10,179 nt of DNA. Source: Janibacter sp. GXQ6167. Its GTDB lineage: Bacteria > Actinomycetota > Actinomycetes > Actinomycetales > Dermatophilaceae. The stretch's first letter is position 1. Every line of letters begins with the position of its first letter. The notes beneath the pieces were generated by a model. The model was not told where the DNA came from. It did not search any database and saw only the letters and a program-made list of their open reading frames with translations. Of this stretch, positions 538 through 9,919 are shown in pieces. A program made the position numbers and the translations under genes. Location: the NCBI RefSeq assembly GCF_041365945.1, contig NZ_JBGFSK010000017.1:2555-12733 (forward strand), in the 5' to 3' direction.

Positions 538-1123
538 TCACTCGGCCGCTACGACGGCCAATCGATCAAGGTCTCTCACCTCCATCCGATACAACAGCGC
601 CTCGTGGCGCACGACGTGCTCGTCGACACCGATCGTGGTGACCCCGTCGAACCGACCAGGATCGTCGATCAGGCGCCGCTTGCCCTCCGCGAGCACCGCA
701 GTGTTCGCGGCGCTCCAGGAAACCCCAAGACCGGCGGCGACACGGGTCACGGTGAGGTGGTCGACGACGATGCCCCGCAGCGCCCACTCCACGCCGAGGC
801 GGGAGATCTTCGCTCGTGGCGCGGCGGCGCGAGTCATGTCCCGCCGCCACGTCCGCCGGCAGTGCGCGCACCGGTAGCGGCGGACCCGGACCAGAAGCGT
901 TGTCGGCCTATGCCCGAACGGCTCATGCGCGAGTCGACGCGTCACCGTGTCCCGCGACACACCCCTCCGCCCCGCACTTCCGACACCAGGGGTCCACCTC
1001 GACCGACCGACACTCGATCATCGCCCGGTCCCGCTCGAGCAGCTGGCCGACCGCTTCGAGCCCGAGTTCATCGAGGCGGCAGAACGTGGTCAGGTCAGGG
1101 GTCGCGAAAGTAGGGTGGAGCAC
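538..1123 (-). pseudogene. ISL3-family transposase, N-terminal ~195 codons only, interrupted by at least one frameshift (near 925-960) and 3'-truncated.
   Basis: Two overlapping minus-strand ORFs (923..1123 and 538..960) together reconstruct a contiguous ISL3 transposase N-terminus across different frames. No ATG lies in frame upstream; the track's M at 1123 is a GTG. An alternative MMEVLHARHPER... start lies in another frame, which suggests further decay. Confidence 0.7.
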
Positions 1124-1202: not shown

Positions 1203-1236
1203 CTCACCCGACTACACCCTCATTCGTGAAGAGCCC
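1203..1236 (-). repeat. Terminal inverted repeat (outer end at ~1236) of the ISL3-family element. Its exact inner boundary is uncertain.
   Basis: RC of plus strand 1228-1236 = GGGCTCTTC, followed by ACGAATGAGGGTGTAG. The integrase reading frame reads through this sequence into a stop (…IGLFTNEGVVG*), marking the insertion junction. Confidence 0.45.
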
Positions 1237-1653
1237 GATAAGACGGGCGACGTTGCGGCTGACGAGTTCGTCGCGCATCGCGCGGGTCAGGGCGGCGGAC
1301 AGTACGGTGCGGAACTTCTGTGCGGTGCGGATTGAGTGGCCCTCGTCGAGCAGCGCGCAGGCGGCGTTCTGCACGTCGCGCACGGTGAGCTGGGTCAGGC
1401 GCTTGCTGCCGATGCGAGGAAGGATGTGCAGTCGCACGACGCCCTCGTATCCCCGTGCGGTGTTGCGTCGGTTGCGGCGCGGCACGACTGTCTCTAGCCA
1501 CTGCTGCAGATAGCCGGCGACCGTGACCTGTGAGTTCGGGGTCAGGATGCCGCGGCCCTCGTGCCGCGGCCCGCCCGGGCGCTTGCGTCGCCTTGCGACC
1601 CGCCGGATCGGCTCGAAAAGACGTTCTGTGGTATATCTATTACGAGAGGCCAT
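1204..1653 (-). pseudogene. Tyrosine recombinase / phage-type integrase, N-terminal core-binding (SAM-like) domain only. The native sequence spans ~1237..1653. The catalytic domain is missing because of the ISL3 insertion.
   Basis: Translation from ATG (RC of 1651-1653): MASRNRYTTERLFEPIRRVARRRKRPGGPRHEGRGILTPNSQVTVAGYLQQWLETVVPRRNRRNTARGYEGVVRLHILPRIGSKRLTQLTVRDVQNAACALLDEGHSIRTAQKFRTVLSAALTRAMRDELVSRNVARLI... This matches the integrase N-terminal core-binding domain pattern: YLxxWL, hydrophobic-rich helix (RLHILPRIG), and SxxTxxKxxxxLxxALxxA. The ORF then continues into the IS terminal repeat and stops. No R..HxxR..Y catalytic domain is present. Confidence 0.7.
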
Positions 1654-1714
1654 ATACAGGATGCACCTGGGCCTTGTCTGGGGGCTACCCAGATCGAGTC
1701 TGGAGGTGTACGGC

Positions 1715-2329
1715 GTGGCCGCGCGAGTCGTCGATGTGCGTTGTCCGGGATGCGGGAGCGCCTGGAGCACCAACCAGCAGTTCTGCCAGTACTGCGGTCG
1801 CCAGGTGCTGATCAGCTCGATGTCCGACCTGATCAGCCTGGAAGCGCGCGACCTCAAGAAGCACGTCCGTACCTACGAGGACGCGCTGGACGAGGGCGCC
1901 GATGATCCGAGCGTGCATGCGGCGCTCGGCATGTGCCTGCTCAAGCTGGGGCTGCGCGACAAGGCGCTGTCGCACTTCGAGGATGCGCTGCTCGATGACA
2001 TCGAGAACTCGGAACCGTACTTCTACGCCGCCGTCGCGTCGCTGGGTGGCAAGAAGCCGTTCCTGGTTCCGCTGGCTGGCATCCGCCGCGCGGAGGAGTA
2101 CCTCACGGCGGCGCTGCGGCTCGAGGAGCGCGGAATCTACGCCTACCTCTACGGGTACATCCGCTTCGACTACTACGAGCGCAAGTCGCTGAACGTCGAG
2201 CCGTCGTACCAGCACTACCTGCAGCAGGCAGTGCTTCGCGGTGTGACCGATCTGGACATCCAGACGCTGTTCGAGCTGCTGGAGATCGTCCCTTCGTCCG
2301 CTTCCATTCCGACCAGCGTTTCCGCCTGA
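1715..2329 (+). CDS. Zinc-ribbon protein with a C-terminal TPR-like, all-helical domain (204 aa from the GTG at 1715). It is possibly a YdjG-like component.
   Basis: It is the first gene of the co-directional operon. GGAGG at 1702-1706 lies 8 nt upstream of the GTG at 1715. Starting here avoids overlap with the integrase fragment on the opposite strand. The N-terminus has the ribbon CPGCG-x9-FCQYCG (1742-1800). The remainder (…ALGMCLLKLGLRDKALSHFEDALLDD…EEYLTAALRLEERGIYAYLYGYIRFDYYERKS…) is TPR-like helical. The 1523..1714 extension in the ORF track would overlap the integrase start and is RP-rich, so I reject it. Confidence 0.7.
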   Translation: MAARVVDVRCPGCGSAWSTNQQFCQYCGRQVLISSMSDLISLEARDLKKHVRTYEDALDEGADDPSVHAALGMCLLKLGLRDKALSHFEDALLDDIENSEPYFYAAVASLGGKKPFLVPLAGIRRAEEYLTAALRLEERGIYAYLYGYIRFDYYERKSLNVEPSYQHYLQQAVLRGVTDLDIQTLFELLEIVPSSASIPTSVSA

Positions 2330-2365
2330 CCCCTGTTCTAACCACCCGAGAGAGGTTCCTTCGCA

Positions 2366-3061
2366 ATGGCCATCAACTATGAGCGCAACAAGAAGTACTT
2401 CAAGCAGTCCAGCCCCAAGGCCGGCATCATCCTGATCGTGATCGGCCTGGTGCTGACGCTCGCCCTCCCCGAGGCGGGCAAGCTCGTCGGCATCCTGGGC
2501 ATCCTGGGTGGCGCGGCGCTGATCTACTTCCAGTTCGCGGGCAAGCCGAGCGACGCGGACATCGACTCGGACGCTGCTGCCGCCATCGCGGACGTGAAGA
2601 AGCGCGCGCTGGGCAAGCTCGGTCTGGACGAGGACGAGGTCAAGCTCATCGACCCGGTGATCGTTCACGGCTACTACTACAAGAACATCGCCTCGGGCGT
2701 GCAGGTCAAGCTCGGCAAGGACCGCGTCTTCCGTTCCTCGAACTACGAGGGCGTCGTGCTGTTCTTCAGCGAGCACCAGCTGCACGCGTTCAAGTTCCAG
2801 TTCTCTCTCGTCTCGCCGCAGGAGAGCCGCGAGCAGACCGACGAGTACTTCTACAAGGACGTCGTGTCGGTGGCGACGCAGTCGGAGACGTTCAAGATCA
2901 ACGACATCAAGGGCAACAGCCAGCAGGTCAACTTCGAGGAGTTCAAGCTCACCACCACGGGTGGCACCTCGATCACTTCGTCGATCCGCGACGAGGGCTC
3001 GGTCAGCCGCGTCATCTCCGGCGCGCGCAGCCTGATTCGCGAGAAGAAGATCGCGTCCTGA
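2366..3061 (+). CDS. Membrane-anchored protein (231 aa). It has an N-terminal hydrophobic hairpin (AGIILIVIGLVLTLAL…LVGILGILGGAALIYF) and a soluble ~170-aa domain. It is possibly YdjH-like.
   Basis: ATG at 2366 is preceded by GAGAGAGG (2348-2355), and it lies 36 bp after the stop of the upstream gene. The protein is unusually Lys-rich (K > R) for a high-GC host, yet it keeps high GC3 (AAG, TTC, TAC codons). Confidence 0.75.
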   Translation: MAINYERNKKYFKQSSPKAGIILIVIGLVLTLALPEAGKLVGILGILGGAALIYFQFAGKPSDADIDSDAAAAIADVKKRALGKLGLDEDEVKLIDPVIVHGYYYKNIASGVQVKLGKDRVFRSSNYEGVVLFFSEHQLHAFKFQFSLVSPQESREQTDEYFYKDVVSVATQSETFKINDIKGNSQQVNFEEFKLTTTGGTSITSSIRDEGSVSRVISGARSLIREKKIAS

Positions 3062-3079
3062 CCCCGAGTTCTCTGCGTG

Positions 3080-3112
3080 CCGGGGCCGGTCGGCAGTCGC
3101 CACCGGCTCCGG
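3080..3112 (+). promoter_or_regulatory. Intergenic stem-loop between the membrane-protein gene and the ATPase gene (11-bp stem, 11-nt loop). It may be a partial terminator/attenuator or an RNA-processing element.
   Basis: CCGGGGCCGGT (3080-3090), loop CGGCAGTCGCC, ACCGGCTCCGG (3102-3112). The arms are complementary except for one G·U pair. No U-tract follows, so it is not a classical intrinsic terminator. Confidence 0.3.
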
Positions 3113-3156
3113 CACACCAATTCCGCTGCCCGAGCGTGACGTGAGGAGTGTGCCGT

Positions 3157-5841
3157 ATGCCCGCAGGCGACGCGCCCCTGACGTTCACGCCTCTCGCGCA
3201 GGGTGAAGTAGCCGCTGCTACGGTGGTCGAGGTCGTCCGCATCCCGCACGTCTCCGTGCTGGGCGATGATCCGGCTGCCGAGCTGGTGCAGCAGTCCAAG
3301 CGGGACTTCGTCAGCCTGCTGTTCGAGGCGTACCAGTCGTACCGCGGACAGTACGAGGACGGCCCCGACCGAGCTAGCGACTGCGCTCTGGAACTGCTTT
3401 GGCAAGCACACCCCATTCAGGGCCAGCCGCACGCCGCCGACCTCACGCTATTCATCATCGTTCGCGCGATCGGCGCGAACCGGGACGACGCAGCGGCGGT
3501 TGTCAACGAGCTGCACGCTGTCGTGATCAGCGCGCTCACGCTCGGCGGCTTCGACTACGCAGATCGTCCTGCCTCCGCGATCGGCGCCCAGGCGGCGGAA
3601 CGGTCGGTTGCGCTCGTGAAGGAGGAGTGGATTGAGAACCTCGGCAACCAGATCCTGCCGAGCGCCTTCGCCTTCCACCGTATCCCCACGGGCAGCCGTG
3701 ATCTCTCACGTATCGCCAGCGCCCTAACCGAGGTGCCCGGTGCGTCCCTCTCGGTTCAGCTGATCCCGGCGACACTGGAGCCTGACGAGCGGACTGCTAT
3801 CGAGCAGCTGACGCTGGCGCTCACGACCCTCGCCAACGGTGTGACGGATCAGTCGATCGGTACCGTCAGCTTCACCGCGGCGAAGCGCCTCGCGGAGATG
3901 TACTCGTATCTGGAGGGGCACAAGGACTCGCCCCTGTTTCTGTTTAACGTCGTCGTCTCCGGGCCGAAGCTCGCCGTGCCGGTGATCGCCAACCGGGTGC
4001 TCGGTCACCTCTCCGCCGACGCCGAGGTAGGCGCGCTGGCGGCACGCTTCGTCGACGCCACAGCCCTGGTGCCACGAGGCGATGCGTCCTTCGTCGCTGC
4101 ACCGTGGCAGCTGAACGAGACGCTGCTCGACCAGACTCGTGATCCGTCGCTCTGGGCGGCGGGCCGCAATCCCGGTGAGGCATTCTACCGGCTGCCGTTC
4201 CTGCTGACGGCATTCGAGGCATCGGAGTTGTTCCGTCTGCCGATCGGCAGTGACACGGTCGGCGCCGGGCTGACGGTGAACACCACGACCCGGCACTCGC
4301 GCAACTACTCGGCCGGCGTGATCGGGAGCTCGAGCATCGAAGCCGGGCGACTCGCCGGGGCGGCCGAGGTCTCGATCGGGTTCGGGCATACCGACCTGAC
4401 CAAGCACGCTTTCGTCACGGGGACGCCCGGTTCGGGTAAGACGACGTTCACGGTCGGGCTGCTCGACCGGCTCTGGCACGAGCACGGCATCCCGTATCTG
4501 GTGATCGAGCCGGCGAAGAACGAGTACCGGGCGCTGATCGAGACGACGCCGGATCTGCAGGTGTTCACCCCGGGCAAGGATCATCTGTCTCCGCTTGTGC
4601 TGAACCCGTTCCTGCCGCCAGCGGGCGTGCGGGTGCAGAGCTACAAGTCGACCCTCAAGACGGCGTTCGCAGCCGCGGTCACGATGACGAGCCCCCTGGA
4701 CAAGATCTTCGAGGACGCCCTCTCAGCCACGTACTCGCGGTTTGGCTGGTTCGATGCCGACACAGCCGCCGATGGCCGTGAGGTGTTCTCTATCCGCGAC
4801 TTCCTGGCCGTTTTCCAGGAGACCTTCGTCCGCATCGGCTACACCGGAGACGCGGCCAACATCGGACGAGCAGGCCAGGTGCGCCTGCAGAGTCTGGTTG
4901 GCCTGTTCGACACCTACCCTTCGATCCCTGTCGAGGATCTGCTGTCGAAACCCACGGTAATCGAGCTGGCAGGGATCGAGAACAGCGACGACAAGGCCCT
5001 CTACATCGCGCTCATCCTGCTGCAGGTCCTCGCCTACGTGAACGCCAACGTCGCCGGCGACGGGAAACTCAAGCACGTCCTCCTGCTCGAAGAAGCCCAC
5101 GTCTTGCTCGACGCCGACGACGCCAGCGGACCGGGCGAAGCGGACCCCGCCGCGATTGCGAAGAAGCTGCTCAAACGCATGTTGGCCGAGATCCGCTCCT
5201 ACGGCGTCGGCATCATCGTGGCCGATCAGTCGCCACGCAAGGTCGGCTCGGACGTGGTGGCGCTCACGAACATCAAGCTCGGGTTCCGGCTGGTCGAGGC
5301 CGCAGACAAGGAGATCCTGGCCGAGAGCACCAACATGAGCGACGCGCAGCGCGAGCGGCTGGCGCGGCTCCGGCCGGGCGAGGCACTCCTGTTCTACGAC
5401 CGCCTCGAAGACCCCGAGGAGATCGCCACAGCCGACTGGCGCGCCCAGCGCGGCATCCCGACGTTCGTGTCCGATGAGGAGATCGCCCGAAAGGTCACTT
5501 ACTGGCAGCGGCACCCGGAACTGCTCATGCCATACCCGGAGAGCGCCTACATCGGGGGCTGGGACGCCTCGGTTGCCGGTGCGGGCAAGGAGATCGCCCG
5601 GCGCCTCTTCGCCGCGCACGTCCCGGCCGGCGATGTCGGCGTCAAGAGATTCGGCAGCATCTACCGGCAGCTCGATGCGTTCATCGCCGCCGAACTTCCC
5701 GCGTCGATCCCGAACACGCCGGCCCTGCGGCGAGCGGTCAAGGTCAACTTCCTGCGGCTGGTCAAGTACGAGTCGCAGATCCCACTGTCGGACGCCACGA
5801 TCCACAAGACCCTCGAAGCCGAGAGGAGCCGCACAGCATGA
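3157..5841 (+). CDS. HerA/FtsK-superfamily (DUF87 / HerA-like) P-loop ATPase, 894 aa. The ~420-aa N-terminal domain is unassigned.
   Basis: GAGGAG (3143-3148) lies 8 nt upstream of the ATG at 3157; the track's GTG at 3148 has no spacer. Walker A is GTPGSGKTT (~4420-4446), followed by YLVIEPAKNEY and LVLNPF; HerA proteins have …IFDPHGEY…INPF in the same positions. Walker B is HVLLLEEAHVLL (~5074-5100). The C-terminal motif GVGIIVADQSPRKVGSDVVALTNIKLGFRL matches the HerA 'RKYGvgl.lvtQrPsel…' region. The stop overlaps the next start (ATGA at 5838-5841). Confidence 0.85.
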   Translation: MPAGDAPLTFTPLAQGEVAAATVVEVVRIPHVSVLGDDPAAELVQQSKRDFVSLLFEAYQSYRGQYEDGPDRASDCALELLWQAHPIQGQPHAADLTLFIIVRAIGANRDDAAAVVNELHAVVISALTLGGFDYADRPASAIGAQAAERSVALVKEEWIENLGNQILPSAFAFHRIPTGSRDLSRIASALTEVPGASLSVQLIPATLEPDERTAIEQLTLALTTLANGVTDQSIGTVSFTAAKRLAEMYSYLEGHKDSPLFLFNVVVSGPKLAVPVIANRVLGHLSADAEVGALAARFVDATALVPRGDASFVAAPWQLNETLLDQTRDPSLWAAGRNPGEAFYRLPFLLTAFEASELFRLPIGSDTVGAGLTVNTTTRHSRNYSAGVIGSSSIEAGRLAGAAEVSIGFGHTDLTKHAFVTGTPGSGKTTFTVGLLDRLWHEHGIPYLVIEPAKNEYRALIETTPDLQVFTPGKDHLSPLVLNPFLPPAGVRVQSYKSTLKTAFAAAVTMTSPLDKIFEDALSATYSRFGWFDADTAADGREVFSIRDFLAVFQETFVRIGYTGDAANIGRAGQVRLQSLVGLFDTYPSIPVEDLLSKPTVIELAGIENSDDKALYIALILLQVLAYVNANVAGDGKLKHVLLLEEAHVLLDADDASGPGEADPAAIAKKLLKRMLAEIRSYGVGIIVADQSPRKVGSDVVALTNIKLGFRLVEAADKEILAESTNMSDAQRERLARLRPGEALLFYDRLEDPEEIATADWRAQRGIPTFVSDEEIARKVTYWQRHPELLMPYPESAYIGGWDASVAGAGKEIARRLFAAHVPAGDVGVKRFGSIYRQLDAFIAAELPASIPNTPALRRAVKVNFLRLVKYESQIPLSDATIHKTLEAERSRTA

Positions 5842-7019
5842 GCGACTACGGCACCGACATTGCAGACGCCCCCGTCGACACCGGCGCGGACGTCAGCGTG
5901 CCCGATACGACCGACTACGCCGACGAGCCGGTCGACCTGGCCGAGACCCCGCCCGAGTCGGAGGCGCCCGAGGCCGAGGAGGCGCCGCCCGCCGAAGACC
6001 TCTCGGAGCCCGCAGCAGATGAACTGAGCGGCACGGCGGAGACGCCGGCGGATGCGGAGGCACCCGTCGACCTGGGCGCGGCCCCGGAAACGGCCGACGC
6101 CGCCCCGGAACAGCCCCAGGACTGGCAGGAGGGCGAGGTCGTCGATCTCGGCGACGACGCTGCCCCCGACGCCCCGCAGGAGGACGAGACCGCCGAGGCG
6201 GACGATCCTGCCGGGCGCGACCTGGGTGATCCCGACCTGGCCGACAGCCCGGAGGCCGAGGCTCCCACGGATAGCGCCGGTGAGGATCTGACGACACCGA
6301 CGGACGACGAACCGGGCGCCGGTGATGCGCCGACTGACGCCGACGAGCAGGTACCTGAGGCGGCGGAGATTGAGCCCGAGGCCGCAAACGACGTGACGGA
6401 TGCCGAACCCGAGCCCAGGGTCGATGAGTTGACAGAGGCGGCCCGGGATGAGGCCCGCCCCGCCGACGAGCTGCGCGCCGAGTACTACGCCGACGTGGCT
6501 GATGTGCTGGCCGATGACACACCATCCGACGCCGAGCCGGTCGAGACGCAGGACACTCCCGGAGCAGACGCTGCCGAGGCGCCGGAGTCGAGCGATCACG
6601 CGGACGCCGCCAATGACCGCAGCAACTCCCCAGAGAACGAGGCACTGACCTCGGCGCTAGCCGAGAAAGGCCTGTCGCTGGAGCCGGTCGATCGCTTCGA
6701 CTACAGCGACAACCCGGTTCTCGGCTACCGCGAGTCCGCCCCGCCCGAAGACGTCGCGTACGCCGTCAACGCCTGGAACGACGAGATCGCGCCCGGCATC
6801 GCGGCCGGCGCGACCCGTGAGGACTTCGCCGCCTACGACCAGGAGCACGGCCTCGAAGGGCAGCGGCAGCTGGCCGGCGTCTACGACTACATGCTCGGCG
6901 GCGACGCGATCAAGAGCGGCGGAGAGCGCGAGGACGGATCGCTCGACGTCACCGGCGGCAGGCACCGCCTGGAACAGGCGCGTCTGAACGGCGTCCAGTA
7001 CCTGCCCGTGAGGAAGTAG
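5838..7019 (+). CDS. Acidic, low-complexity protein (393 aa). It has a ~270-aa D/E/A/P-rich, presumably disordered N-terminal region and a ~120-aa C-terminal globular domain.
   Basis: Translationally coupled by an ATGA overlap, with GAGAGGAG at 5821-5828. The frame shows clean high-GC codon usage (GAC/GAG/GCC/CCC), while the alternative frames are Arg/Pro-rich junk. The C-terminus contains …VYDYMLGGDAIKSGGEREDGSLDVTGGRHRLEQARLNGVQYLPVRK. The GGxHRxxxAxxxG…PV stretch is reminiscent of ParB/Srx box II, but that is tentative. Confidence 0.65.
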   Translation: MSDYGTDIADAPVDTGADVSVPDTTDYADEPVDLAETPPESEAPEAEEAPPAEDLSEPAADELSGTAETPADAEAPVDLGAAPETADAAPEQPQDWQEGEVVDLGDDAAPDAPQEDETAEADDPAGRDLGDPDLADSPEAEAPTDSAGEDLTTPTDDEPGAGDAPTDADEQVPEAAEIEPEAANDVTDAEPEPRVDELTEAARDEARPADELRAEYYADVADVLADDTPSDAEPVETQDTPGADAAEAPESSDHADAANDRSNSPENEALTSALAEKGLSLEPVDRFDYSDNPVLGYRESAPPEDVAYAVNAWNDEIAPGIAAGATREDFAAYDQEHGLEGQRQLAGVYDYMLGGDAIKSGGEREDGSLDVTGGRHRLEQARLNGVQYLPVRK

Positions 7020-7056
7020 CCGACCCGGCATCCGATCCGACGAAAGCGAACACCGT

Positions 7057-8256
7057 ATGAAGATCTACGACGTCATCAAGAACGAGACCGGCCTTCTCAA
7101 CGACGGCCTGGGCTCGAAGGCCGTGCTGGCGTGGAAGTTCACCGGTGAGGACTTCAACGACAACACGCAGCTGATCGTCTCCGAATCGGAGGAGGCGATC
7201 TTCATCCGCGACGGCATCGCCGTGGCGACCTTCGGCGGCGGCCGCTACACGCTCAACAGCAACAACCACCCCTTCATCGGCAGGCTGAGGAACCTGCTCT
7301 CCGGCGGGGTGAGCGCGTTCAGCTCGCGGGTGTACTTCGTCAACATCGATCACAAGTTGGAACTGCTGTGGGGCACCGACAGCCCGATCCAGCTCCGCGA
7401 CCCGGTCTGGAGCCTGCAGACCAGCGTGCAGGCGCGCGGCTCGTACTCGATCCAGGTGACGGACTCCAAGAAGTTCCTGATCAAACTGCTCGGCACCAAC
7501 ATCCAGGTTTTCGACGAGCAGCAGCTCGCCGGCTACTTCCGCAGCGCCTTCTCGCAGCACATCCGCGGACAGATCGCCCGCTACATCCGCGACTCCGGCC
7601 AGGAGATCCTGGAGATCACCTCGGACATCGAGCTGCTGGCCGAGCAGCTGCACCCGAGGCTCGCACCGCTGCTGGATGAGTACGGCGTGAAGCTCGTCAA
7701 CTTCTACATCGCCGCGATCGACATCCCCACCGACGACCCGAACCGCCAAGTGCTGGAGAACTCGATCGCACAGAAGCAGGCCAAGCTGCAGAGCGCGCAG
7801 GGCGATAAGGCCGTCATGGGGCTGCTCGGGGAAGACTGGGCCAGGCAGCAGTCGGCCACCATCCTCACCGAGCTCGCCAAGAACCCCGGCGCGGGTGGCG
7901 TGGCTTCCGCGGGTGCCGCAGCAGGCGTTGGCCTGGCTGCGGGCAGCGTCTTCGGGGAGATGGCGACGCAGATGTTCACGCGCCCCGTCCAGCCCGCAGG
8001 CGACCCGATGGCTGGCAATGTCGGGCGCAACCGCACATCGCGCTTCTCGCCCGCAGAGCCTGCCGCGCCGGCCGCCGCCGAGACGTGTCCGGGCTGCGGC
8101 GCGAGCGTGGCGGCGGGAGCGAAGTTCTGCCCGGAGTGCGGCAACCGTCTCGCACCTCAGCAGGTGCCCTGCTCGGGTTGCGGAACCGCAATCGCGAGCA
8201 CGGCCAAGTTCTGCCCCGAATGCGGAACGCCGAACAACCAGGGAGCATCCTCATGA
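7057..8256 (+). CDS. SPFH/Band-7-family protein (COG4260 / PF13421-like, 'putative virion core protein' group) with C-terminal tandem (double) zinc ribbons, 399 aa. YdjI-like.
   Basis: The N-terminal ~250 aa match the COG4260 pattern as I recall it: MKIYDVIKNE…, GGRYTLNSNNHPFIG, YFVNIDHKLELLWGTDSPI, ARGSYSIQVTDSKKF. A Gly/Ala-rich linker follows. Then come two tandem ribbons, CPGCG-x9-FCPECG and CSGCG-x9-FCPECG (8086-8229). The stop overlaps the next start (ATGA at 8253-8256). Confidence 0.85.
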   Translation: MKIYDVIKNETGLLNDGLGSKAVLAWKFTGEDFNDNTQLIVSESEEAIFIRDGIAVATFGGGRYTLNSNNHPFIGRLRNLLSGGVSAFSSRVYFVNIDHKLELLWGTDSPIQLRDPVWSLQTSVQARGSYSIQVTDSKKFLIKLLGTNIQVFDEQQLAGYFRSAFSQHIRGQIARYIRDSGQEILEITSDIELLAEQLHPRLAPLLDEYGVKLVNFYIAAIDIPTDDPNRQVLENSIAQKQAKLQSAQGDKAVMGLLGEDWARQQSATILTELAKNPGAGGVASAGAAAGVGLAAGSVFGEMATQMFTRPVQPAGDPMAGNVGRNRTSRFSPAEPAAPAAAETCPGCGASVAAGAKFCPECGNRLAPQQVPCSGCGTAIASTAKFCPECGTPNNQGASS

Positions 8257-8930
8257 CCCGCACGATCCTGCGCGCCATCCTGTGGCTCGTCCCCATCGCC
8301 GTCTACGTCGCCATCTTCCTCATCCTCGAGGCCCCGCAGGGCGCGACGTTCTGGACGTCCGCACTGCTGCTGGCGTTCGCCTACGTCATGCTCGCCGTCA
8401 GTTTCGTCGCCGTGCCGCGCAGTCGGATAGCCGCGATCCTGGCCATGCCCCTGATCCTGGTGGCGAGCATCTACTTCACTGCCGAGCTCATCGCGGCCAG
8501 CATCTTCATCTACGTGCAGGACATTCCATACCCGTGGGTGATCATCACGCAGCTGATCCTGGCCGCGATCTTCCTCGTCGTGTTCCTCACCACCTTGTTG
8601 TCCAACGAGGCCATCGCCGCCCAGATCGAGACCCAGCACGCCGACGTCCTGGTGATCAAGAGCGCCGTCACCCGCATCACGGCCCTGGGACGTGTCGCCC
8701 ACGATCCGCGCCTGGCGAAGTCGCTGGACGGGCTGGCCGAGGAGTTCCGCTACAGCCCGACGATGCGCTCGAACCAGGTGCGCGAAGTCGACGCGCAGAT
8801 CGCCGTGCAGCTCGAGCGACTGGAGAGCCTCGTCCACATCCAAGCTTCGCAAGAGGATACCGTCGGCCAGATCGCGGCGATATCCGGGGCGCTCGCTTCA
8901 CGCAACGAGGCGATCAAGCTCCGCCAGTAG
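8253..8930 (+). CDS. Integral membrane protein (225 aa). It has 4 predicted TM helices and a ~75-aa C-terminal helical, coiled-coil-like cytoplasmic tail.
   Basis: ATG at 8253 with GGGAG at 8241-8245. It has four long hydrophobic segments (ILWLVPIAVYVAIFLIL; ALLLAFAYVMLAVSFVAV; AAILAMPLILVASIYFTAELIAASIFIYV; VIITQLILAAIFLVVFLTTLL). The track's longer ORF starting at 8085 overlaps the zinc-ribbon coding region of the upstream gene in another frame, so I reject it. Confidence 0.75.
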   Translation: MTRTILRAILWLVPIAVYVAIFLILEAPQGATFWTSALLLAFAYVMLAVSFVAVPRSRIAAILAMPLILVASIYFTAELIAASIFIYVQDIPYPWVIITQLILAAIFLVVFLTTLLSNEAIAAQIETQHADVLVIKSAVTRITALGRVAHDPRLAKSLDGLAEEFRYSPTMRSNQVREVDAQIAVQLERLESLVHIQASQEDTVGQIAAISGALASRNEAIKLRQ

Positions 8931-9376: not shown

Positions 9377-9919
9377 TCAAGGCCGGGGCGAACTCCCGAG
9401 CAGGGCGTGCAGCTGATGGCTGGCTGGTGAGACGGCGCGAATGCGGGTCTCGTGGAGGGCGGGGTCGTGCGTGCGCAGGTACATCGCCCAGAACGCCGCG
9501 TCGGCATACGTTGTGTGCAGATCTGACTGCGCCCGCCAGCCGCTCGAAGCGGTGCGCCGGTAGCCGACTTCGTAAGGGCCGCCATGCAGGAGTTCCTGCA
9601 CGAGTGATGCCGGGACGTCACCGACCGGGTAGGTGCTGCCGATATCGCCCACGAGGAGCACGTCGCCGTGCAACGCCGGCCGCTGCCTTGAAGTGGTGTC
9701 CCAGAACCAGCGCAGCGACGAGGCGCGCAGGTTCATCGGGAGCCCGTTTCGGCGGTCGTCGGCGTCGAGCCACATCGTGACACCTCGGCTCTCGATGTCG
9801 ATCGGGATCACCAGATCAGCGAGCTGCTGAATGTCTGCGAACCCTGCGACCTCCCGCGTTTCGAGTTGTTGCTCGATCTGCGCCGGGATGAGAACAGCCG
9901 TGACGGTCTCACCATTCAC
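9377..9919 (-). CDS. Hypothetical protein, 180 aa, Trp-rich. It may be a small mobile-element-associated protein.
   Basis: It is the longest ORF in this region, with a balanced amino-acid composition (MNGETVTAVLIPAQIEQQLETREVAGFADIQQLADLVIPIDIESRGVTMWLDADDRRNGLPMNLRASSLRWFWDT…). The overlapping plus-strand ORF 9370..9780 is Arg/Pro-rich junk. No convincing SD sits upstream, so confidence is moderate. Confidence 0.45.
   Translation of the reverse strand: MNGETVTAVLIPAQIEQQLETREVAGFADIQQLADLVIPIDIESRGVTMWLDADDRRNGLPMNLRASSLRWFWDTTSRQRPALHGDVLLVGDIGSTYPVGDVPASLVQELLHGGPYEVGYRRTASSGWRAQSDLHTTYADAAFWAMYLRTHDPALHETRIRAVSPASHQLHALLGSSPRP

Follow-up and report, generated by a model that had tools for sequence, protein, structure and literature searches.

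A mobile six-gene cassette with an FtsK-HerA-superfamily ATPase of predicted VirB4-like build, a candidate polymorphic-toxin or conflict system

Results

A six-gene cassette in the Janibacter window

We analysed 10,179 nucleotides of DNA from Janibacter sp. GXQ6167 (contig NZ_JBGFSK010000017.1, positions 2,555 to 12,733), referred to below as the window. Positions 1715-8930 of the window are one six-gene, horizontally mobile operon, here called the cassette, in which the third gene encodes an ATPase of the FtsK-HerA superfamily and the fourth a strongly acidic protein. The six genes are closely packed on one strand, and start and stop codons overlap as ATGA at 5838-5841 and 8253-8256. The window is high-GC DNA (62-73% G+C). 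Public annotation of the six proteins is generic ('ATP-binding', 'SPFH domain-containing' or 'hypothetical'), and we place the cassette among polymorphic-toxin or conflict systems driven by an FtsK-HerA-superfamily ATPase. Its parts are as follows (aa, amino acids; TM, transmembrane; ORF, open reading frame).

1715..2329, plus strand: Zn-ribbon (CPGC...CQYC) and TPR-like protein, 204 aa, first cassette gene
2366..3061, plus strand: TM-hairpin protein, 231 aa, with the hairpin at about aa 19-58 and a conserved soluble domain of about 170 aa (from hydropathy and an alignment of 30 members)
3148-5841, plus strand: ATPase ORF, with the start placed at ATG 3157, as homologs begin MP..A.DAPL; 894 aa
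3157..4332, plus strand: ATPase N-terminal domain, aa 1-392, alpha/beta, with a predicted fold like the N-terminal domain of VirB4/TrwK
4333..5841, plus strand: ATPase core of the FtsK-HerA superfamily, followed from about aa 760 by a C-terminal helical domain
5838-7019, plus strand: acidic protein gene, pI 4.1, start overlapping the ATPase stop (ATGA)
5838..6623, plus strand: polyacidic low-complexity N-terminal region of the acidic protein, aa 1-262
6624..7019, plus strand: C-terminal effector module of the acidic protein, aa 263-393, with a ParB/Srx-like core DG..V.GGRHR..A..NG...LP (GGRHR at 6954-6968)
7057..8256, plus strand: soluble SPFH protein, with Band_7_1 at aa 32-226, an Ala/Gly-rich linker and two C-terminal zinc ribbons
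8253..8930, plus strand: 4-TM membrane protein, 225 aa, with four TM helices at aa 8-114 and a helical cytoplasmic tail of about 105 aa; start overlapping the SPFH stop

The ATPase combines an FtsK-HerA core with a predicted VirB4-like N-terminal domain

The ATPase carries the following motifs.

aa 422-430 (nt 4420-4446): Walker A, GTPGSGKTT
aa 449-457: VIEPAKNEY
aa 482-485: LNPF
aa 642-648 (nt 5080-5100): Walker B, LLLEEAH
aa 689-695: ADQSPRK (QSPRK at 5221-5241)
aa 705-712: NIKLGFRL

The sequence-only reading of this stretch had reported a HerA-like motif set in 3157-5841, and every motif that it quoted is present. When 20 ATPase homologs from several phyla were aligned, G422-T430, L644-H648 and D690-R694 were invariant; the Walker motifs did not prove degenerate on alignment, as that reading had allowed they might. 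Judged by motif integrity, the protein has intact P-loop motifs under strong constraint and is probably catalytically intact. It has Walker A, Walker B with the catalytic Glu and a polar/Arg sensor, and over aa 394-618 it exceeds the Pfam cut-off for DUF87, 'Helicase HerA central domain' (29.1 bits; cut-off 23.2). These are the features of a P-loop ATPase of the FtsK-HerA superfamily, so the label 'HerA/FtsK-type' stands at that level. The 'HerA' part of the label is too narrow, since the build of the protein appears VirB4-like and the HerA models stay far below their cut-offs. NCBIfam HerA_antiphage reached 37 bits against a cut-off of 800 and helicase_HerA 32 bits against 970, with only about 150 residues covered by the HerA models (aa 610-760). 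The best NCBIfam match was CedD (72 bits against 600, 3e-20). HerA_C, TrwB_AAD_bind and GvpD were all sub-threshold in Pfam, and PDB sequences gave weak HerA matches to the C-terminal part of the core alone (E ~3e-6). Among the PADLOC models mad8 ranked first (8.9e-17), followed by partial HerA matches, confined to the C-terminal part of the ATPase, and DndH (6.7e-5). HerA proper, as in HerA-NurA-like repair, was rejected: full-length HerA models did not match, and there was no HAS-barrel and no NurA, Sir2 or DUF4297 gene. Alignment and hydropathy gave a single P-loop domain without a true TM segment.

Residues 1-390 had no match in Pfam, NCBIfam, PADLOC, PHROGs or PDB sequences. The earlier statement that the N-terminus matches nothing therefore holds at the level of sequence, but the fold can be recognised as that of the VirB4/TrwK N-terminal domain. 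The structure of residues 1-392 alone was predicted from 24 diverse sequences (mean predicted local distance difference test score, pLDDT, 86; predicted template-modelling score 0.87), and the model is a two-lobed alpha/beta fold rather than a HerA-associated barrel. Two structure-comparison methods matched it to VirB4/TrwK, with EccE of the type VII secretion system (T7SS) ranking next; all of these proteins belong to machines that secrete protein or DNA. By Foldseek, all 14 matches with E<=1e-3 were TrwK/VirB4 chains (best E 5.5e-7, probability 1.0, template-modelling score ~0.42). These fold matches come from predicted structures and were made without residue-level alignments. No RecA-like ATPase, no HerA structure and no other barrel-containing ATPase was among the structural matches. 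The match is thus to the N-terminal domain of VirB4 and not to its ATPase domain.

With a VirB4/TrwK-type N-terminal domain before a P-loop C-terminal domain, the ATPase is therefore predicted to be built like VirB4, that is, from a docking domain and a motor domain. By sequence it lies outside VirB4: there was no CagE_TrbE_VirB match in Pfam, and NCBIfam VirB4_plasma scored 14 bits against 590. The predicted fold lends support to a suggestion made from the sequence alone, that the protein could be a membrane-tethered translocase.

One further difference among the homologs lies in the C-terminal helical domain. Non-actinobacterial copies have a Cys-rich stretch there, PYPEC.Y...C...C[DN] (alignment columns 808-825). 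The window ATPase and other actinobacterial ones have lost those cysteines together with four residues (PYPESAYI----GGWD, aa 792-815, window 5530-5600). Possibly the stretch binds a metal and the actinobacterial clade can do without it.

The acidic proteins share a leader and differ in their toxin domains

In 33 of 38 loci, the distance from the ATPase stop to the start of the acidic gene is between -4 and +40 nt. In the window, aa 1-262 of its product contain 33% Asp/Glu and 2% Lys/Arg. The protein begins MSDYGTDIADAPVDTG, which is the window copy of an N-terminal motif of the leader, M-[DGS]-[DE]-E-[FY]-x-x-S-x-D-x-S. The first 150 aa contain hardly any Lys or Arg, and Asp and Glu make up 35-59% of them in the longer, toxin-bearing members and about 20-35% in shorter members. 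Low-GC genomes show the same leader composition, and thus the acidity is not a composition artefact. The leader is not universal: in L053 and L055-L057 the encoded protein is short and contains 15-20% Lys/Arg, and the proteins of L028, L036 and L049 start otherwise.

Lengths range from 67 to 1374 aa, and the C-termini are mutually unrelated among C-terminal clusters. They include Gln_amidase (papain-fold toxin 1), TNT NADase, WHH, Colicin-DNase, Endonuclea_NS_2 and DUF6782/SprT-like metallopeptidase domains. A shared N-terminal region, the acidic leader, is thus combined with variable C-terminal toxin domains across the 38 loci, which is the arrangement by which polymorphic toxins are recognised. 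At 90% identity, the cluster of the window's acidic protein has one member, compared with 13 for the ATPase and 19 for the SPFH protein, so the effector diverges much faster than the machinery.

Small ORFs that vary together with the toxin type follow many effectors. All nine metallopeptidase-type effectors are followed by one 98-aa ORF family, both effectors of one deamidase type by an 81-aa family, and two further effectors by a 160-aa family. These ORFs often overlap the effector stop codon and are present in about half of the loci. Their co-variation with the toxin suggests that they are immunity-like.

We also observed that effectors with nuclease-type C-termini, of the WHH/colicin DNase, NS endonuclease or ParB-like kind (L025, L041, L071, L048 and window 5838-7019), have the SPFH gene directly next, with no small ORF, and that deamidase, NADase and metallopeptidase effectors (L001, L023, L029, L015 and others) have a small ORF before the SPFH gene, although the numbers are small. 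The polyacidic, DNA-like tail might act as a built-in inhibitor of DNA-acting heads. An immunity-like ORF on non-nuclease toxins only is compatible with either export or abortive infection.

In some loci (L049 11661-16396, L054 11836-13338, L069 7208-13365) the stretch between the ATPase and SPFH genes holds a second acidic effector, both effectors having a small ORF of their own, or additional large paralogous genes. Similar multi-substrate or orphan-module arrays are a feature of other toxin loci.

The C-terminal module of the window effector (aa 263-393) also occurs in cassettes of Modestobacter and other actinobacteria. It had no Pfam match. A word-indexed search with the module returned one relative only, and the family came from an exhaustive HMMER search: 239 representative clusters carry the module, always at the C-terminus of proteins of 200-430 aa. 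The core DG..(V)..G-x-HR...A..LG...LP is invariant in 24 members. Most of the module-bearing proteins have helical, non-acidic N-termini, and one or two out of 40 weakly match WXG100 models; these are not effectors of the cassette. Profile searches of PDB sequences found SbnI, Noc and ParB on that core only (E 0.046-0.5), and the module is likely to be ParB/Srx-like. Tox-ParB is among the toxin domains of Zhang et al. (PMC3482391). The sequence-only reading had found no recognisable nuclease partner for the ATPase. This was correct in that no NurA, Sir2 or DUF4297 match to Pfam or PADLOC was found in window genes or related loci, but it missed the acidic protein as an effector and the ParB/Srx motif at its C-terminus.

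The neighbours of the ATPase are conserved across phyla

Gene contexts were compared in assemblies and 74 genome loci from at least seven phyla, by ORF calling and iterated HMM (hidden Markov model) searches. The neighbourhood counts come from a simple ORF caller, and since high-GC loci (L005-L011) were mis-called, they are lower bounds. A recurrent set was found that consists of a Zn-ribbon/TPR protein (about 197 aa), a protein of 210-250 aa, the ATPase, a variable protein, an SPFH protein (about 390 aa) and a 4-TM protein (about 225 aa). The set is kept across Actinomycetota, Bacillota, Bacteroidota, Spirochaetota, Planctomycetota, Verrucomicrobiota and Fibrobacterota. Where at least 5 kb of sequence follows the ATPase (39 loci), the SPFH gene is present in 37 and the 4-TM gene in 34; the Zn-ribbon/TPR family occurs in 51 out of 63 loci. 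The 4-TM gene always follows the SPFH gene in the loci compared. The position of the TPR gene permutes, before the ATPase in Firmicutes and after the 4-TM gene in Bacteroidota. Since the gene set is conserved while its order is permuted, the neighbours are functionally linked with the ATPase, and this pattern marks them as partners, not bystanders. The membrane, SPFH and acidic neighbours noted earlier in the window are therefore as described, and conserved.

The SPFH protein matches Pfam Band_7_1 with 116.9 bits against a cut-off of 24 (1.3e-33) and DZR with 2.4e-10. Its zinc ribbons have CxxC at 344, 358, 372 and 386, and it has no TM segment. A soluble Band_7_1 protein with a zinc finger, encoded beside a membrane protein gene, is of the YdjI/SamI type. 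B. subtilis YdjI is a soluble protein with a C-terminal zinc finger, and YdjG/YdjH bring it to the membrane (PMC8581546). By analogy, the 4-TM protein probably anchors the SPFH protein. It had no Pfam match and no meaningful PDB match.

The soluble domain of the TM-hairpin protein is marked by the motifs KIGLDEDEV, WLFFS and EYFYKD, with an LREKK helix at the C-terminus. The protein matched nothing in Pfam, NCBIfam or PDB. Firmicute members of this family are without the TM hairpin, and a gene for a YidD-like TM protein comes next. In L001 (7468-7953) and its equivalents in many Firmicute loci, this gene encodes a TM protein of about 160 aa with a YidD (membrane-protein insertion efficiency factor) domain and is located between the small conserved protein and the ATPase. 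The hairpin-less small protein of those loci has a conserved Gly-Cys near its N-terminus.

Pfam matches of the Zn-ribbon/TPR protein to DZR, Zn_ribbon and TPR were all sub-threshold. Its GTG start at 1715 agrees with the L006 homolog, and the mechanical ORF extends back to 1523. An antisense ORF over the same stretch (1685-3115, minus strand, 476 aa) was rejected as a high-GC artefact, because two conserved plus-strand genes cover it. Sequence searches with the N-terminal domain, the TM-hairpin protein and the 4-TM protein in Pfam, NCBIfam, PADLOC, PHROGs and PDB yielded no usable match; internalin and designed coiled-coil matches were set aside as chance or compositional.

The effector, the ATPase and the SPFH protein have no signal peptide or TM segment, and the cassette has conserved, dedicated membrane proteins instead. 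None of the six neighbours of the ATPase matched any PADLOC (2023) model, including those of Mad and Dnd. Pfam found no type IV secretion system (T4SS) domain (VirB3, VirB6, VirB8, coupling protein or relaxase) in cassette genes and no PspA domain in the window or related loci.

The cassette is widespread and mobile

The ATPase family comprises more than 1600 clusters at the 90% identity level (E<=1e-3). Its carriers are gut, rumen, soil and other host-associated or environmental bacteria, and cultured ones include Microbacterium sp. HA-8 and MRS-1, Modestobacter lapidis DSM 100206, Ruminococcus albus AR67, Faecalicatena contorta and Bengtsoniella intestinalis BP47G. Between the window ATPase and copies in other phyla, full-length identity is 45-50%, with 57% in the core and C-terminal domain and 38% in the N-terminal domain. 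Between Janibacter and Microbacterium copies the identity is 90% or higher, and copies from Spirochaetia, Planctomycetaceae, Fibromonadaceae and Defluviitaleaceae, which belong to four phyla, share 80-84% mutual identity (P0058, P0091, P0092, P0117).

The flanks of the cassettes are heterogeneous. Among 116 flanking proteins there were six integrases, three relaxases and two resolvases, and the remainder were mostly housekeeping proteins. About 8-10 of the 116 match PADLOC defence models (type I and type IV restriction endonucleases, AbiD, AbiEi). No T4SS or T7SS parts were among the families listed in this census. Phage records gave just two partial, unannotated matches, and plasmid records no full-length close relative. 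A distant relative of 963 aa (34% identity) is encoded on the Priestia megaterium plasmid pN447-3.1 (L083, 7221-13694). It is followed by a 1135-aa protein of acidic repeats of about 45 residues (…TDTDTELQDD…), with no SPFH or 4-TM gene nearby. Because this locus keeps the acidic neighbour without the SPFH gene, the pair of ATPase and acidic protein is the deepest association. The plasmid locus is possibly a minimal or alternative version of the cassette in a cultured, tractable host.

Elsewhere (L001 1-3522; L006 6453-7418 and 15848-17047), cassettes adjoin a gene for a 1526-aa NACHT-type NTPase, a ThiF/E1-like gene and a gene for a TnsA-like transposition protein, so that these islands hold further genes of conflict or of mobile elements. 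The window itself has three further features outside the cassette.

538-960, minus strand: ISL3-family transposase fragment (zinc-ribbon part), upstream of the cassette
1204..1857, minus strand: N-terminal fragment of a tyrosine integrase at the upstream edge of the cassette (Pfam Phage_int_SAM_3, 4.3e-10), with the SAM-like and middle domains and without the catalytic domain
9377-9919, minus strand: DUF3846 protein, 180 aa, downstream of the cassette (sub-threshold Pfam match; PHROG 3777)

The transposase and integrase fragments resemble the eroded border of an element with which the cassette arrived. The DUF3846 gene does not accompany the cassette in other loci. Scanning the window for promoters, terminators and tRNAs yielded nothing informative.

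Discussion

A putative toxin export machine

The cassette has a motor, membrane and scaffold proteins, a constant leader with swappable heads and co-varying ORFs, and it has moved between phyla. Taken together, these features led us to read it as a machine that exports or delivers polymorphic toxins, with the ATPase engaging the acidic leader, and we give this reading a probability of about one half. The ATPase would be a soluble, VirB4-like motor that assembles as a ring at the membrane. Its platform would consist of the YdjI-like SPFH scaffold, the 4-TM anchor, the TM-hairpin protein and the Zn-ribbon/TPR adaptor. The client would be the acidic protein, with its short N-terminal motif, a long disordered region rich in Asp and Glu and an exchangeable C-terminal toxin module. 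The ring would grip the leader, and ATP would drive the unfolded effector out of the cytoplasm. We infer ring assembly, recruitment to the membrane, leader recognition, translocation, the immunity function of the small ORFs and the target. There are precedents for parts of such a machine: T7SS and T4SS move toxins with ATPases of the FtsK/HerA superfamily (PMC3482391), and flotillin is reported to scaffold T7SS assembly in S. aureus (PMC5718613).

A more tentative proposal is that the cassette is an unrecognised type of secretion or delivery system, in which a VirB4-like ATPase works on an SPFH platform, effectors have polyacidic leaders and the whole set moves between monoderm and diderm hosts. 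The gene combination is undescribed in the open-access full-text literature that we searched; the S8-PTS paper (PMC9424270) concerns a different system.

Several observations weigh against export. The sole polytopic membrane protein of the cassette has four TM helices, and no obvious channel is present. Diderm hosts have the same gene set with no outer-membrane component. The full-length AlphaFold2 model of the ATPase is mediocre (pLDDT 67). Some loci encode only short acidic proteins (67-176 aa) without a toxin domain; by analogy with WXG100 proteins, these could be core substrates. The small ORFs are called immunity-like from their co-variation with toxin type, and a Pfam scan of ten of them gave DUF7675 and a sub-threshold Imm-NTF2-2 match (E 0.03) alone. 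About half of the effectors are without such an ORF, including that of the window and all recognisable nucleases (WHH, NS endonuclease), and the lack of an immunity ORF would not be expected of a secreted DNase. The ParB/Srx-like assignment of the window's own effector module, although likely, is weak (E 0.05-0.5).

Alternative explanations

The alternative that survives best is abortive infection or another defence against mobile genetic elements, although we consider it unlikely. The SPFH/TM module or the ATPase would sense infection, as membrane stress or foreign DNA, and the ATPase would pull the acidic tail and free a self-inhibited or immunity-bound toxin inside the producer. Integrases, relaxases and transposase remnants occur in the islands that carry the cassette, some flanking proteins match defence models as counted above, and effector swapping is typical of defence systems. 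Nuclease effectors without an immunity ORF fit a DNA-mimicking acidic tail that acts as an inhibitor in cis, and YdjI-type SPFH proteins act in envelope-stress sensing. However, no neighbour of the ATPase matches any PADLOC model, and the flanks are mostly housekeeping genes. TNT, Gln_amidase, WHH and Colicin-DNase domains, two-toxin chains and co-varying ORFs are hallmarks of secreted polymorphic toxins (PMC3482391). Moreover, a purely cytoplasmic pair of sensor and effector would need neither conserved membrane proteins nor a docking domain of the VirB4 type.

The ATPase could also be a DNA-handling translocase of the HerA/FtsK type, acting in repair, in a restriction-like process or in DNA uptake or transfer, with the acidic protein as a DNA-mimic regulator. 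The ParB-like or nuclease C-terminus would then be the DNA-acting partner, functionally a HerA-nuclease pair in a new guise. Polyacidic stretches are known as DNA mimics, the core of the ATPase resembles DNA pumps (DUF87/HerA, CedD, DndH, FtsK type), the window effector ends in a ParB/Srx-like domain and several orthologous effectors are DNases. This explanation is improbable, because many effectors are enzymes that do not act on DNA (NADase, glutamine deamidase, metallopeptidase), the ATPase has a VirB4-type docking domain and no HAS-barrel, and its scores to the HerA, CedD and FtsK families are far below the cut-offs (72 against 600, 37 against 800). It also leaves the membrane/SPFH module unexplained.

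Very improbable is a module for envelope stress or membrane maintenance related to PspA-YdjGHI, in which the ATPase would remodel the scaffold and the acidic protein would be structural or ion-binding, with no role in conflict. The SPFH protein does have the build of YdjI, and a membrane-protein gene comes next, as in ydjGHI. But none of the loci compared has a PspA gene, toxin domains and immunity-like ORFs are out of place in housekeeping, and 80-84% identity between phyla together with a patchy distribution points to a mobile accessory trait. Equally hard to credit is a degenerate remnant or accessory part of a conjugative T4SS, to which the VirB4-like N-terminal domain and the relaxase and MobC genes adjoining the cassette in some Firmicute loci might point, since VirB3, VirB6, VirB8, VirD4 and pilin are absent from the cassette and not consistently present in the flanks (relaxase 3/116), no VirB4 sequence model matches, and the cassette is complete, with strong conservation and no sign of decay.

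If toxin export is the function, the cassette would be an unnoticed route of toxin delivery, with more than 1600 protein clusters and relevance to competition in microbiomes, and a minimal, portable relative of the T4SS and T7SS motors. It would also, for the first time, connect a bacterial SPFH scaffold functionally with a secretion ATPase of the same operon, and its polyacidic disordered leader would be a new kind of secretion signal. If defence is the function, the cassette would be a widespread system with an unusual activation logic, in which an ATPase acts on a tail resembling a DNA mimic.

Comparison with known systems

DndH/DptH and the MADS protein mad8 match only the cassette ATPase, and no Dnd or Mad partner is present among the six neighbours. 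The HerA-NurA, Sir2-HerA/Nezha and HerA-DUF4297 pairs differ from the cassette in that its ATPase has no HAS-barrel, is matched over about 150 core residues and has no such partner. The cassette has a polyacidic fusion protein as effector and membrane proteins as obligatory neighbours.

VirB4/TrwK of the T4SS has the same type of N-terminal domain before the ATPase domain, but the identity is about 9% and no VirB4 sequence model matches. In place of VirB3, VirB6, VirB8, VirB10, VirD4 and pilin, the cassette has SPFH, 4-TM and TPR proteins and a polyacidic effector. The N-terminal domain also resembles EccE in fold, and there are weak WXG100 matches among the module-bearing proteins, both of which recall the T7SS. 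EssC/EccC of the T7SS have tandem FtsK domains, whereas the cassette ATPase has a single domain, no FHA domain and no TM segments. EsaA, EssA, EssB and EccB/D are missing, the leader appears disordered and polyacidic rather than a helical WXG/LXG bundle, and the cassette is unchanged in diderm phyla.

With PspA-YdjGHI (SamGHI) of Bacillus subtilis, the cassette shares the soluble Band_7_1 SPFH protein, the low-complexity linker, the C-terminal zinc finger and the membrane-protein neighbours. It has no PspA, and its SPFH module is embedded in a toxin/ATPase operon. Compared with the polymorphic toxin systems described by Zhang et al. (2012), the polyacidic disordered N-terminus is not among the listed trafficking domains, the machinery is new and about half of the loci, the window among them, lack an immunity ORF. 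Nevertheless, the cassette has in common with these systems a constant N-terminus, exchangeable canonical toxin domains, co-varying downstream ORFs and horizontal transfer.

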